A stretch of 53,122 nucleotides of DNA. Source: a virus. Below the pieces are notes generated by a model. It was not told where the DNA came from. It was given only the letters and a program-made list of their open reading frames with translations, and ran no database searches. Positions 1 to 53,122 of this stretch are shown in pieces. The number at the start of each line of letters is the position of its first letter. The first letter of the stretch is position 1. Position numbers and translations under genes: made by a program. The stretch lies in IMG/VR virus record IMGVR_UViG_3300017971_000065. One strand, written 5' to 3'.

Positions 1-123
1 CATTGTCAGGATTGAAACCGACATTCTGAAAGTGACAAGAGAGAAAGAAGGTAAGGACGTTGTCGTGAACATCGACAGGATAAAGATTGACGATGGCCTA
101 TGTTCAAGACGTTTCAACCAACC
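1..123. repeat. Terminal direct repeat, copy 1 (identical to 53000-53122); signature of a circularly closed or terminally redundant genome
   Basis: Direct comparison: cattgtcaggattgaaaccg...gtttcaaccaacc is present at both window ends, 123/123 nt identical. Confidence 0.95.
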
Positions 124-583
124 AGACACGCTTGGAATGTCAGAACCGAAAGTTCCAAATCTGAATCTGAAGTCCAACTTCGAGATGACATGGGTAGATT
201 TCGGTGACGCTTTGAAGCGTTTCCAGAAAATATCAGACCATGTCAAGATTGCGTGCTTCGAGGAAGGCATTGAACTGTCAGTCGAGGGCGACATCGACGA
301 GTGCGTTGTCAAGAAGCCGAAAGACCTACTGGTATCATACGAGTTCGGCGGTGTCGAGGATGAAACAAGGAAAGACCATATCAGGTCATTGTACCCATTG
401 GACTACATGACCAGTCCATTCAAGTCATCAAAGATGTCTGGCATGAGTCCGTTGTTCAAGCACGAACGATGGCTCAACGTGTGCAAGTTCTCATTGAGTG
501 ATGACTATCCGATCAAGATTGAGGCCCAGAGGAACGGTGTCAGTATAACATATCTACTGGCCCCACGCATTGAGAGTGAATAA
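1..583 (+). CDS. pcn: PCNA sliding clamp (paralogue 1), C-terminal part; continuation of the CDS that starts at 52695
   Basis: The reading frame from ATG 52695 runs through the repeat into position 2 and is in phase with track ORF 32..583. Joined product is about 295 aa. C-terminus ...ITYLLAPRIESE and internal PKVPNLNL/ELSVEGD segments look like archaeal/eukaryotic PCNA. Confidence 0.85.
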   Translation, partial: IVRIETDILKVTREKEGKDVVVNIDRIKIDDGLCSRRFNQPDTLGMSEPKVPNLNLKSNFEMTWVDFGDALKRFQKISDHVKIACFEEGIELSVEGDIDECVVKKPKDLLVSYEFGGVEDETRKDHIRSLYPLDYMTSPFKSSKMSGMSPLFKHERWLNVCKFSLSDDYPIKIEAQRNGVSITYLLAPRIESE

Positions 584-3827: not shown

Positions 3828-4622
3828 ATGGCTAAAAAGACAAAGACGCAGAAAAAGATTGAGGCCGAGATGAAACCTGGCAAGGTGTCATTCAAGACAA
3901 CTTGCGGTCAGTTGAAAGCATTGACATCTCTCACAATGATCATCACAAAGAAAGCGGTGCTCGAATTCACACCGTCTGGACTTGAGGTGAGTGTTGTAGA
4001 TGAGAAGGTAACTCATGCTGGACACATCACCCTTACTGCCGAAGGAATGGAAGGTTACGGACTCGGAAAGAACAAGACCGAATTCCTTTGTGGTATCGAT
4101 TTGAAACATCTGCATGAATTTCTCGGCAATCTCAATGTGAAAGATGAGGTAGAGTGTGACTTCGACGAGGAAAAGATGAGGGCAACATTCAAGTCTGGCA
4201 ACCTGTCCAGAACGGTAGAACTGTTGTTCTCATACGATGACTGGAAAACATGGAGAAAGACCGACCTGAAAATACAGTATCAACACGAGTTCAAGGACAT
4301 CGACAGCAAGGACATACTGATCGGTATGAAGGGAGTCGAGGATGTCAATGATGACGAGGTCATCTTTGAGTCAAACAAGAGTGGCTTCTTGATAATGGCA
4401 GAGGATAGCGGTGACGACATCGAAGTTCCTTTCGGAAAGAAGGGAAAGACAAAGCGGATCAAGTCGAAGTTCAGAGTCGGCCCAGTCAAGGCGATTGTGA
4501 AAGAGATGAACGGAAAAGTGACAGTATCGATGGGCGAACACATCCCAATCGAGTTCTCATGGTTTCCAGCAGAGAACATGGGTGCAACCTTCATGGTGGC
4601 CCCATTGACAAAGGGTGATTGA
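3828..4622 (+). CDS. pcn: PCNA-like sliding clamp (paralogue 2, divergent)
   Basis: 264 aa, the typical PCNA length. GAGGAGC SD upstream. Two-domain pattern, and the C-terminus ATFMVAPLTKGD parallels the LAPRIE end of paralogue 1. Confidence 0.7.
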   Translation: MAKKTKTQKKIEAEMKPGKVSFKTTCGQLKALTSLTMIITKKAVLEFTPSGLEVSVVDEKVTHAGHITLTAEGMEGYGLGKNKTEFLCGIDLKHLHEFLGNLNVKDEVECDFDEEKMRATFKSGNLSRTVELLFSYDDWKTWRKTDLKIQYQHEFKDIDSKDILIGMKGVEDVNDDEVIFESNKSGFLIMAEDSGDDIEVPFGKKGKTKRIKSKFRVGPVKAIVKEMNGKVTVSMGEHIPIEFSWFPAENMGATFMVAPLTKGD

Positions 4623-5360: not shown

Positions 5361-5600
5361 ATGATTATGAACGGTGAGAACATGAATGATGACGCATTCA
5401 AGATGACTATAATATTATCGAGAGAGAAGTGTTTGCCAGTCAGCTTGATACTGAAAGAGAAGTGTGACATCGAGAACATAATGATAGAGGAAGTGAAAGG
5501 CAAGAAAATTTGTGATCGATGTGGTGGCTCTGGCAATGAACTCTTGAGACATTATAAAAAATGTGAGAATTGTTCAGGGACAGGAATGGTGAGCAAATGA
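5361..5600 (+). CDS. Small protein with DnaJ-type CxxCxGxG zinc finger
   Basis: CDRCGGSG...CENCSGTG; GGAG SD upstream. Confidence 0.55.
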   Translation: MIMNGENMNDDAFKMTIILSREKCLPVSLILKEKCDIENIMIEEVKGKKICDRCGGSGNELLRHYKKCENCSGTGMVSK

Positions 5601-51041: not shown

Positions 51042-52064
51042 ATGAAACAGAAATATGAGTCATACAATATGACACAGCGACTTCTCGACCAGATTAAAGT
51101 TATCAACGGTGTTGTTGAGTCCTATGCCAAACAGGGCTATAAATTGACATTGAGGCAACTGTATTACCAGTTGGTTTCCAGAGGAATAATCCCAAACAAA
51201 GACACCGAATACAAGAAACTATCAGATTTACTCGTAAAGGCGAGGATGTCTGGTCTTGTCGATTGGGACGCGATAGAGGACAGGACAAGGGTTCCGAAGC
51301 TCGATTACTCAGTTGACGACATTCCAGATGCCATTGACGATACCATCAGTCAGTACAAGTTAGAACGATTACAAGACCAGAAAGTGTATATCGAAGTCTG
51401 GTGCGAGAAGGACGCATTGAGCAACATCCTTCGGAGAATGACCAACAAATTCCATGTCAGGTTGATGATAAACAAAGGATACTCAAGTGCAAGTGCAATG
51501 TATCGTGCGGCCCAAAGGTTCAGGAGACACGGAACAGGAAAGAAAAAGATACTTCTGTATCTTGGTGACCATGACCCTTCGGGACTCGACATGATAAGGG
51601 ACATAGGCGATAGATTGAATACATTCGGCGTAAGACTGGACACACCAGACGGTTATCCGATTCACTTGGGTATTACAAGAGAACAGGTCGAGGAATACGA
51701 ACCGCCTGAAAATCCAGCAAAGATTACTGACCCACGAGCCGAGTGGTACATCGAAGAACATGGAGAAAGTTCATGGGAAGTCGATGCTCTCGAACCATCA
51801 GTCCTAAACGAGTTGATCGAGAACGAGATATTCGAGTGGATTGATGAGGACAGGTTCAGGAACAAAGTCAAGCAAGAGAACGTTGACAAGTTGAAACTTG
51901 AAAATCTCAAGGACTTGATCGATGACCTCGATGTAAATATCGAAGTGTCATGTGTGAACTGTTCTGAACAAGTCCAGGCCGATGACGATGATACTATATA
52001 CGACATGGATGATGACAAATGGTTCTGTGGTAATGAGTGTCACGATGAATACAATGCCGAGTAA
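51042..52064 (+). CDS. Topoisomerase VI subunit A / Spo11-like protein (mini-A type: 5Y-CAP plus Toprim) with C-terminal zinc finger
   Basis: TLRQLYYQL (catalytic-Tyr motif, compare RDIYY), VWCEKDAL (Toprim Glu), LGDHDPSGLDM (Toprim DxD). GGTGATGTGATG start context. Confidence 0.7.
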   Translation: MKQKYESYNMTQRLLDQIKVINGVVESYAKQGYKLTLRQLYYQLVSRGIIPNKDTEYKKLSDLLVKARMSGLVDWDAIEDRTRVPKLDYSVDDIPDAIDDTISQYKLERLQDQKVYIEVWCEKDALSNILRRMTNKFHVRLMINKGYSSASAMYRAAQRFRRHGTGKKKILLYLGDHDPSGLDMIRDIGDRLNTFGVRLDTPDGYPIHLGITREQVEEYEPPENPAKITDPRAEWYIEEHGESSWEVDALEPSVLNELIENEIFEWIDEDRFRNKVKQENVDKLKLENLKDLIDDLDVNIEVSCVNCSEQVQADDDDTIYDMDDDKWFCGNECHDEYNAE

Positions 52065-52084
52065 TCGGCAACCTTTACCTTTAT

Positions 52085-52235
52085 GGGTCTGTGGCTCAGT
52101 TAGGCAGAGCGTCGGGCTTTTAAGGTCATGTGGCGAGGTTCACTATCTCCGTTCCAAGCTGAATGATGAGAAACTGATTGACCCACATGATTTGGAGATA
52201 CCCGATGGTCGCAGGTTCAAATCCTGCCAGACTCG
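52085..52235 (+). tRNA. tRNA-Lys (anticodon UUU) with a 77-nt intron at position 37/38 (52123-52199)
   Basis: Hand fold: acceptor GGGTCTG/CAGACTC, D arm GCTC/GAGC, anticodon stem TCGGG/CCCGA, loop CTTTTAA, T arm GCAGG-TTCAAAT-CCTGC. No encoded CCA. Confidence 0.85.
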
Positions 52236-52260
52236 TAATCATACGCAACAATAACTCAAG

Positions 52261-52397
52261 AGCGAGGTAGGGTAGTCTGGTAATCCCAATGGGCTCATGA
52301 GTCGGATGTGAAGTTTCTGCCCTGATCCTCCACTGATGACACCAGTCACCATGATTGAGAAACCCATTAATCTGTGGTTCGAATCCACACCTCGCTA
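52261..52397 (+). tRNA. Initiator-like tRNA-Met (anticodon CAU) with a 62-nt intron (52300-52361) in a canonical bulge-helix-bulge context
   Basis: A1:U72. Anticodon stem ATGGG/CCCAT gives three G:C pairs at 29-31:39-41. T arm TGTGG-TTCGAAT-CCACA. Central 4-bp helix CTCA/TGAG flanked by 3-nt bulges TGA and AAA. Confidence 0.8.
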
Positions 52398-52399
52398 TC

Positions 52400-52557
52400 G
52401 GGTAACACCGACACATGGCAGGTAGCATGAAGTCCGGTCTATCTGAAGTCGCCGAATGCGTGTACTGGTGGCTATCGGGCGTGATGCCACATCTTCTTTG
52501 CTGGCTGGCATTAGAAACTCCAACAGAGCACGATACTACGGTTTGTCGGTGTTATCC
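52400..52557 (+). ncRNA. Unclassified structured element: 14-bp long-range helix enclosing 130 nt
   Basis: GGGTAACACCGACA (52400-13) pairs with TGTCGGTGTTATCC (52544-57), one G:U. An inner hairpin GTGGC/GCCAC lies at 52468-52490. Confidence 0.35.
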
Positions 52558-52561
52558 ATAT

Positions 52562-52666
52562 CCGTCGATGATGAGTGCGACCAGAGTTGATCCATCAGAT
52601 GCTTGAGAAAAGGGACTGCTGCACTGCCCTGTTGGGAGATGACATAGTTCCTCTAAACTGAGACGG
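52562..52666 (+). ncRNA. Box C/D sRNA candidate
   Basis: Terminal stem CCGTC/GACGG, C box ATGATGA (52568-74), 12-nt spacer, TTGA (52587-90), AGATGA (52637-42), D box CTGA (52658-61) abutting the stem. Confidence 0.4.
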
Positions 52667-52694: not shown

Positions 52695-53122
52695 ATGGCT
52701 GTAAAGAAAAAGCAAGATAAACTGGCCAAAGAGCCAGCAAGTGCCAATTTCAAGGCAAGGATTGAGTGCAGTCTGCTTCGTGGAATTGCGTCAAGTATTT
52801 CCATGTTGACAGATGAGGCGAAGTTCAAGATTGGCAAGAAAAAGTGGGTTATACAGGTCGTTGATCCAGCACACATTGCCATGCTTGAATTGGAGATTGA
52901 TGTCAGCAACTTCGAGGATTATATCTGCAAGAAAGAAGGTGTCGTAGGAGTTGACATAGACAAATTGCATGACGCAATCAAGTACGTCAAGGACAGGGAC
53001 ATTGTCAGGATTGAAACCGACATTCTGAAAGTGACAAGAGAGAAAGAAGGTAAGGACGTTGTCGTGAACATCGACAGGATAAAGATTGACGATGGCCTAT
53101 GTTCAAGACGTTTCAACCAACC
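52695..53122 (+). CDS. pcn: PCNA sliding clamp (paralogue 1), N-terminal part; runs off the window end and continues at position 1/124
   Basis: GGATGTGATGTGATG start context. MAVKKKQDKL...FKARIECSLLRGIASSISMLTDEAKFKIGKKKWVIQVVDPAHIAMLELEID is PCNA N-domain-like. Not in the ORF track because no stop lies within the window. Confidence 0.85.
   Translation, partial: MAVKKKQDKLAKEPASANFKARIECSLLRGIASSISMLTDEAKFKIGKKKWVIQVVDPAHIAMLELEIDVSNFEDYICKKEGVVGVDIDKLHDAIKYVKDRDIVRIETDILKVTREKEGKDVVVNIDRIKIDDGLCSRRFNQ
53000..53122. repeat. Terminal direct repeat, copy 2 (identical to 1-123)
   Basis: Same 123-nt string as 1-123; the repeat extends to the window edge. Confidence 0.95.

Follow-up and report, generated by a model that had tools for sequence, protein, structure and literature searches.

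A probable initiator-type tRNA-Met gene with an archaeal-type intron and G37 in the genome of an uncultivated tailed archaeal virus

The inspection of a 53,122-nt stretch of viral DNA (referred to here as the window) revealed a tRNA(CAU) gene that is split by an archaeal-type intron and, on balance, probably functional, specifying a virus-encoded tRNA-Met of the initiator type. The window is the whole genome, in circularly permuted form, of a tailed archaeal virus that has not been cultivated; among its products are a large terminase (phrog_2, E=1.5e-23), a DNA methyltransferase-ligase fusion, a tail protein and PCNA. The same 53-kb genome was found, circularly permuted, in JGI 3300017963 Ga0180437_10000890 (53,122 bp), ENA ERZ27256783 and Logan SRR6963352; the three assemblies are identical across the tRNA region and probably share one sample of origin. 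No close relative of this genome was detected among GenBank phages. Viral tRNAs, an intron-bearing viral tRNA (in halovirus HGTV-1) and intron-bearing initiator genes in archaeal metagenomes are already known. What is new is the combination of an initiator-type gene on an archaeal virus, a canonical intron and a G at position 37 that is conserved in a diverged relative. A literature search found no paper describing an intron-bearing initiator-type tRNA with G37 on an archaeal virus, and no full-length match to an archaeal initiator was present in GenBank archaeal viruses.

The Rfam tRNA model RF00005 matched the gene with 48.0 bits, the gathering score being 29 (E=2.9e-7 for the whole window), and aligned over model positions 1-71 with an insertion in the anticodon loop. 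ARAGORN missed the gene under default settings; when introns were allowed (-i), its call was tRNA-Met(cat), interrupted by an intron of 62 nt and having ctcatga as its anticodon loop. No protein gene was called at this locus in the three assemblies. All four stems of the cloverleaf pair, except for a U13·U22 mismatch in the D stem; the acceptor stem has 7 bp and the anticodon stem reads AUGGG/CCCAU, with a 5-nt variable loop and an ordinary T arm. A1 lies at 52261, U72 at 52396 and A73 at 52397. The GGG at 52291-93 pairs with the CCC at 52363-65 (G29-31:C39-41), and the anticodon CAT (52296-98) is followed by G37 at 52299. The initial annotation had given coordinates for this gene, and every one of them proved right when the sequence was re-read. 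The predicted spliced tRNA is AGCGAGGTAGGGTAGTCTGGTAATCCCAATGGGCTCATGACCCATTAATCTGTGGTTCGAATCCACACCTCGCTA. The features of the locus are collected in Table 1.

Table 1. Coordinates of the tRNA(CAU) gene, its parts and neighbouring genes in the window
Feature	Position	Strand	Remarks
'Topoisomerase'-like protein	51042-52064		phrog_6247
tRNA-Lys(UUU)	52085..52235	+	77-nt intron 52123-52199 at 37/38; Rfam 55.2 bits; ARAGORN -i
tRNA(CAU) gene, predicted initiator-type	52261..52397	+	no encoded CCA; Rfam RF00005; ARAGORN -i
5′ exon, tRNA positions 1-37	52261..52299	+	A1; D arm; anticodon stem AUGGG; C32 U33 C34 A35 U36 G37
Bulge-helix-bulge, 5′ half	52294..52304	+	CUCA 52294-97; bulge UGA 52298-300, predicted cut after G37 52299; outer GUCG 52301-04
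Intron, 62 nt, canonical 37/38 site	52300..52361	+	homologous to the 75-nt intron of L118
Bulge-helix-bulge, 3′ half	52352..52362	+	outer UGAU 52352-55; UGAG 52356-59; bulge AAA 52360-62, predicted cut before A38 52362
3′ exon, tRNA positions 38-73	52362..52397	+	A38, CCCAU, variable loop UAAUC, T arm, acceptor CCUCGCU, A73
T arm of tRNA(CAU)	within 52362..52397	+	UGUGG-UUCGAAU-CCACA
Conserved structured non-coding RNA, 158 nt	52400-52557		directly after tRNA(CAU)
Box C/D-like small RNA	52562-52666		just upstream of PCNA; by inspection only
PCNA-like sliding-clamp gene 1	52695-53122 + 32-583		spans the window ends; PF00705
PCNA-like sliding-clamp gene 2, divergent	3828-4622		NCBIfam NF002222, 6e-18

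The intron has the hBHBh′ layout, that is, a 4-bp central helix, opposite 3-nt bulges and an outer helix of at least 2-3 bp. The central helix is formed by nucleotides 32-35 (CUCA) and UGAG; the anticodon-stem helix h has 5-6 bp, and the outer helix GUCG/UGAU comprises 4 bp (U-A, C-G and two G·U). This geometry is that drawn for the Haloferax volcanii pre-tRNA-Met (PMC2584109, Additional file 3), in which the helix involves positions 32-35, the 5′ bulge consists of 36, 37 and the first intron base, and the 3′ bulge of two intron bases plus 38 (PMC2584109). Outer helices of 2, 3 and 8 bp are found in H. volcanii tRNA introns, 2-8 bp being normal there. The bulge-helix-bulge of the viral gene was established by explicit geometry, as free-energy folding does not recover it: the free MFE fold lacks the motif and has -42.3 kcal/mol, versus -37.2 kcal/mol when the motif is constrained. 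An unconstrained 3-4-3 scan of positions 52241-52420 returned two candidates, of which only the canonical one fits the cloverleaf; the other would destroy the D and T arms. The motif had been described as 'textbook', a term that suits its geometry but not its outer helix, which is weak (two G·U pairs), nor the free MFE fold, from which the motif is absent.

Euryarchaeal-type splicing endonucleases require a strict 3-4-3 bulge-helix-bulge at 37/38. Cleavage two bases into each bulge would yield ...CUCAUG and ACCCAU..., and position 37 is predicted to be G because canonical cleavage permits no other register. A register giving CUCAUAA (A37) would need a GCUC/UUGA central helix, which is unable to pair; in the related virus contig L118 (see below) this register is also ruled out, as no AA is offered by the 3′ exon. 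The junction reported by ARAGORN agrees with the loop CUCAUGA and with G37, so that this part of the initial annotation stands. The predicted exon-exon junction is GGGCUCAUG/ACCCAUU (in its longer form, GGGCTCATG/ACCCATTAA), and that of the circular intron is ...GATTGAGAA/AGTCGGATG. The intron includes at 52322-52339 the sequence CUGA-N7-CUGAUGA, which resembles a D′/C′ box pair (K-loop). An intron-encoded box C/D guide RNA, as in pre-tRNA-Trp, was considered and rejected: the intron has no proper terminal C or D box, the flanking 12-mers are not complementary to the tRNA (by inspection), CUGA-N7-CUGAUGA is not kept in the L118 intron, and there was no Rfam C/D match.

The class of the tRNA was judged by the defining features and by comparison with reference sequences; for H. 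volcanii these were its initiator, its elongator Met and its Ile2(CAU) tRNA, as given in PMC2584109. Archaeal initiator tRNAs are characterised chiefly by A1-U72 and by the pairs G29-C41, G30-C40 and G31-C39, and aIF2 has a preference for A1-U72 (PMC6412873). The viral tRNA(CAU) has both A1:U72 and the three G:C pairs. Once spliced, it shows 68% identity to the H. volcanii initiator, 73-77% to environmental archaeal initiator genes (AGCGGGG...CCCCGCUA) and 79.5-82% to an initiator-like tRNA encoded in a Natronosalvus rutilus plasmid; the values for the H. volcanii elongator Met and Ile2 are 51 and 53%, respectively, in a multiple alignment, and 59 and 60% in pairwise alignments. The viral tRNA(CAU) is thus assigned to the initiator type with moderate confidence, considering that the references for the two rival classes come from a single organism, H. 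volcanii. The earlier reading of the gene as an initiator-like tRNA-Met, made on A1:U72 and the G:C run, is in line with the listed features (PMC6412873) and with the spliced sequence being nearest to initiator types.

The tRNA could alternatively be an elongator or dual-use tRNA-Met with an inherited initiator-like acceptor end, serving internal AUG codons, which we consider unlikely. Syntenic relatives often lose the three G:C pairs and the canonical T-arm features yet keep the CAU anticodon, and G37 deviates from the initiator loop CUCAUAA (A37), which the viral loop CUCAUGA does not match. However, A1:U72 (or U1:A72) is retained across the viral family; A1:U72 is preferred by aIF2 and separates initiators from elongators, and the copy in the window carries the full GGG/CCC signature. 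The elongator Met features, namely a strong G1:C72 pair and the lack of a GGG/CCC run, are absent from the viral tRNA; the H. volcanii elongator Met has a GCCCGGG.. acceptor and the anticodon stem CCGCA (PMC2584109), and identity to it was the lowest of the three classes (51% in the multiple alignment).

It is quite unlikely that the gene codes for a tRNA-Ile2 in which C34 would be converted to agmatidine by the host TiaS, allowing it to read AUA. Such a tRNA, together with tRNA-Lys(UUU), would compensate for A-ending codons poorly decoded by a higher-GC host, the classical codon-compensation role of viral tRNAs. The anticodon alone leaves CAU tRNAs ambiguous (PMC8450103), and the only other tRNA of the virus is precisely tRNA-Lys(UUU). 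This alternative stays alive because the viral ORFs use AUA for 32% of their Ile codons and AAA for 41% of their Lys codons. The features of the tRNA itself nevertheless point elsewhere. It has A1:U72 rather than G1:C72 with a GGGCC-type acceptor (GGGCCC-type in H. volcanii Ile2), A27:U43 rather than C27-G43, a listed archaeal Ile element (PMC9976931), and G37 rather than the A37 on which t6A37 forms; its identity to the H. volcanii Ile2 is 53-60%, versus 68-82% to initiator types.

Exact-pattern scans for the tRNA gene in IMG/VR and in the JGI metagenome collection gave no match, the window itself being absent from both. The IMG/VR relatives of the topoisomerase-like protein (L001-L062) were mostly unrelated phages lacking this tRNA. 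Eleven further contigs were reached via homologues of the flanking proteins; relatives in which these proteins are 47-79% identical to those of the window have a tRNA(CAU) gene with A1:U72 and A73 in the same position. In the informative case, contig L118, a neighbouring protein is 74% identical to that of the window, and a 75-nt intron lies at the same site, with the same CUCA/UGAG helix, 3-nt bulges (UGA and ACA) and G37. The outer helix of L118 extends to 10 bp and contains the same GUCG core, while the intron sequence has diverged. The persistence of the motif in a diverged intron speaks against its being a chance pairing. Since the intron and G37 are common to both viruses, they predate the split between the window virus and L118. 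The exons of the two are 79% identical and differ by pair-preserving double changes at 27:43, 28:42, 31:39 and 49:65. In an alignment of 12 sequences, 96.8% of the cloverleaf stem cells pair, versus about 44% when the partners are slid, and 20 of the 21 cloverleaf pairs show a compensatory change. This conservation pattern argues for a tRNA gene that is maintained and functional.

At the syntenic spot of L115, L116, L117, L123 and L124/L125, an intronless tRNA(CAU) of 71-72 nt was found with A1:U72, A73 and A37; in some of these intronless relatives only two of the three G:C pairs are present, with A29:U41 or U29:A41 in place of the third, or the T stem is degenerate. In L126 the gene contains a 48-nt intron, U1:A72 and A37, with no strict bulge-helix-bulge. 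Not all members of the viral family have thus kept the full initiator signature. Although the degenerate T arms of these relatives, the U13·U22 mismatch and the observation that about half of the bacterial G37 loci (see below) are 3′-half, att-like fragments could suggest a decaying or non-translational tRNA-like element (for instance a host gene that was captured and is turning into a pseudogene, a site of recombination, or a signal used in processing the small RNAs nearby) in which G37 is a tolerated defect, this is very unlikely given the intact cloverleaf of the window gene, the compensatory changes relative to L118 in three stems, the bulge-helix-bulge geometry kept despite a diverged intron sequence, and a gene position kept across viruses whose flanking proteins are only 47-79% identical.

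Position 37 distinguishes this gene from most initiators, as G37 breaks the otherwise near-invariant loop CUCAUAA. An intronless initiator-like pattern with G37 (GGGCTCATGACCC followed by the T loop) was found at 39 loci in 185,579 species-representative genomes, all of them bacterial and none archaeal; roughly half of the 39 are 3′-half fragments resembling attachment-site remnants. Full-length fMet-type initiator genes with G37 (CUCAUGA) were observed in L076, L078, L081, L085, L088, L101, L108, L109 and L114, contigs of a few bacterial species (Bacillota, Nitrospiraceae, Myxococcota and Actinomycetota MAGs). The intronless G37 pattern also occurred in 10 IMG/VR contigs, whereas its A37 version gave at least 120 matches there. 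When the search was made with an intron-bearing initiator-like pattern (R37), 34 metagenome contigs were recovered, 32 with A37 and two with G37. The latter two (L258 and L271) contain one identical sequence with U1:A72. G37 thus proved as unusual as the initial annotation had supposed, in the intronless scan and in the intron-bearing set alike. The accompanying idea that t6A37 is near-universal in AUG decoders needs qualification: A37 is indeed usual (32 of 34), but H. volcanii carries t6A37 in its elongator Met tRNA and not in its initiator. In E. coli, A37 is a minor MetRS identity element of the initiator. We presume that the viral G37 would probably become m1G37 via the archaeal Trm5. A radical SAM enzyme encoded beside PCNA (640-1554) was considered as a wyosine enzyme (Taw1/TYW1) acting at G37, and was discarded as not TYW1/Taw1-like; it weakly matches PA0069/Rv2578c-type and viperin-type models.

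The tRNA(CAU) genes of L258 (956-1040) and L271 (102-186), from JGI Ga0164310/Ga0164311, combine the three G:C pairs and a TGCGGGG...CCCCGCA acceptor with a canonical intron of 51 nt, the 5′ bulge of which is likewise UGA; both contigs are short, and no viral or cellular markers were recognised in them. G37 recurs in the diverged virus L118 and in the independent L258/L271 lineage, all of these genes being intron-bearing and having a weak 1:72 pair. It seems fairly unlikely that G37, and perhaps the intron with it, arose as an adaptation that sets the viral initiator functionally apart from that of the host. One possibility under that proposal, by analogy with phages, would be that the viral tRNA withstands a host nuclease which attacks the anticodon loop and so stops initiation upon infection. 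In bacterial phage tRNAs, anticodon-loop substitutions have been proposed to allow escape from host anticodon nucleases, the classical targets of which are tRNA-Lys(UUU) and the initiator tRNA (eLife 2023, PMC10264068). The Lys(UUU) and initiator tRNAs of the window virus correspond to the classical targets of PrrC and VapC and might then act as a pair in counter-defence, a coincidence that is suggestive only. The likeness to the phage case lies in a virus-encoded copy of a nuclease-targeted tRNA class bearing an anticodon-loop substitution; however, that case concerns bacteria only, and the tRNA-Lys loop of the archaeal virus is canonical (CUUUUAA). Another possible adaptive effect would be an altered start-codon stringency favouring viral mRNAs.

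The PCNA of the virus provides the sole taxonomic hint as to its host. Its identity to halovirus PCNAs is only about 26%, and the nearest cellular PCNAs are those of Methanomassiliicoccales and Thermoplasmata (35-36%). Two PCNA-like genes are present in the window virus, and its relative L124 also has two. In the lineages indicated by PCNA, the splicing endonucleases are presumably of the euryarchaeal type and need a strict bulge-helix-bulge, which the viral tRNA(CAU) supplies. No virus-encoded splicing, ligation or tRNA-modification enzyme was found among the ORFs scanned, and maturation would therefore depend on the host. If the gene is functional, this uncultivated virus family depends on the tRNA splicing machinery of its host, which points to an archaeal host, most likely within Thermoplasmatota.

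Expression, splicing, charging and use in initiation can be envisaged as follows. The tRNA(CAU) would be transcribed within a small RNA-gene island located between the topoisomerase-like gene and PCNA, and its ends trimmed by the host RNase P and tRNase Z. The host splicing endonuclease would act on the two 3-nt bulges of hBHBh′, cutting behind G37 and ahead of A38, and an RtcB-type host ligase would join the exons. Because no CCA is encoded, this end is proposed to be supplied by the host CCA-adding enzyme. MetRS would charge the tRNA through its CAU anticodon, and A1:U72 plus G29-31:C39-41 would direct the Met-tRNA to aIF2 and to the ribosomal P site, where it would supplement or replace the host initiator during infection. 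An extra supply of initiator is the simplest reading of why the virus carries this tRNA. As the initial annotation suggested, it might give the virus a direct handle on translation initiation.

With archaeal initiator tRNAs-Met the viral tRNA shares A1:U72, A73, G29-31:C39-41, C32, U33, CAU and A38 (68-77% identity). It differs from them in having G37, in being virus-borne and in its acceptor, AGCGAGG rather than AGCGGGG/A. The environmental intron-bearing initiator genes, common in metagenomes (34 contigs), also form their central helix from CUCA and UGAG. Within annotated collections, the best match found was the tRNA of N. rutilus plasmid unnamed3 (NZ_CP100358.1, 14240-14315), a 58-kb extrachromosomal element; the two have in common the acceptor AGCGAGG/CCUCGCU and GGGCUCAU..CCC. 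The plasmid gene, however, lacks an intron, has A37 (CUCAUAA) and a longer D loop, and belongs to a haloarchaeal replicon; it is not a gene entry in the PLSDB table, which carries no RNA genes. Among archaeal tailed viruses, halovirus HGTV-1 (KC292026) has a tRNA set in which the GenBank record lists a 'tRNA Ala (tgc) + Intron', the intron being of the archaeal type, and is a precedent for host-dependent splicing of a viral tRNA. Its intron is nonetheless in tRNA-Ala, and its own tRNA-Met(CAU) lacks A1:U72 and GGG/CCC. In phages, initiator-type tRNA-Met genes are frequent, and viral tRNAs are commonplace. Taken alone, the gene described here adds to the many viral tRNAs one that is unusual at a single base, a modest curiosity rather than a new type of system. 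If functional, it would be a natural initiator-type tRNA in which the near-invariant CUCAUAA loop is altered and which an archaeal virus brings along. It might be used to test the role of position 37 in archaeal start-codon selection, in MetRS/aIF2 recognition and in Trm5 modification, and could show whether archaeal viruses, like phages, carry replacement tRNAs against host tRNA attack.

Several additional tRNA-like genes were noticed during the searches. Contig L263 (JGI Ga0180438_10001757, 37.6 kb, from the same lake series) is an unrelated virus contig, with PolB (phrog_262) and a tail spike, that contains at 5457-5541 an intron-bearing tRNA(CAU) with the three G:C pairs, U1:A72 and A37. 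U1:A72 was also observed in the metagenome matches L273, L269 and L265 and in the relative L126; archaeal viruses may thus repeatedly carry tRNA(CAU) genes in which the 1:72 pair is weak. The syntenic contigs L119 (1814-1929) and L120 (1464-1579) contain an interrupted tRNA-like gene (Rfam 34.5 bits) with A1:U72 and a 46-55-nt insertion, which ARAGORN reads as Val(GAC) with an intron at 32/33. In L117, a second gene-like stretch at about 1960-2130 (GGGCCTGTAGTTCAGTGGTAGAGC...GGGTTCAACTCCCGTCAGGCCC), with a long insertion, was called by neither tool.

The RNA-gene surroundings of the tRNA(CAU) are arguably more interesting than the tRNA itself. The topoisomerase-like gene and PCNA are separated by 630 nt that make up an RNA-gene island, holding tRNA-Lys(UUU), the tRNA(CAU), a 158-nt structured RNA and a box C/D-like RNA. 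In the bulge-helix-bulge of tRNA-Lys(UUU), the central helix is CUUU/GGAG with two G·U pairs and the bulges are UAA and AUA; the outer helix has only two G·U pairs in strict register, although a shift by one base would allow a helix of 9 bp (GUCAUGUGG/CCACAUGAU). Its intron includes CUGA-A-UGAUGA-GAAA-CUGA (at about 52157-52176) and gives a weak SNORD73 C/D match (17.3 bits, E=6.6).

The 158-nt RNA shows a 14-bp closing stem (GGGUAACACCGACA/UGUCGGUGUUAUCC) and a 7-bp hairpin whose invariant loop, CAUGAAGUCCGGU, is able to pair with ACGGUUU near the 3′ end; this loop-to-3′ pseudoknot covaries from CCG/CGG to CCA/UGG, and two further helices follow. In the sequences of the window, L116, L123, L124 and L119, 90% of the cells pair, versus about 35% when slid, with a compensatory change in 21 of the 48 pairs. 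An Rfam search with this RNA gave no match at E<=10. Its loop resembles the CR-I/P4 strand (GAAAGUCCGG) of RNase P, but the topology does not fit. In the box C/D-like RNA the ends pair as a stem (CCGUC...GACGG); its C box is GAUGAUGA (52567-74), and CUGA at 52658-61 is its D box. These boxes, as well as the guide-like stretches CGACCAGA and UCCUCUAAA, are conserved in L118; by inspection, no complementarity to the two viral pre-tRNAs was found. Finally, the stop codon of the topoisomerase-like gene is directly followed by the motif TCGGCAAC(C/T)(C/T)TTAA (52065-52084), which adjoins the first tRNA on its upstream side. It is conserved at the nucleotide level in L115-L118, where the proteins are only 74-78% identical, and could be a processing or promoter element.
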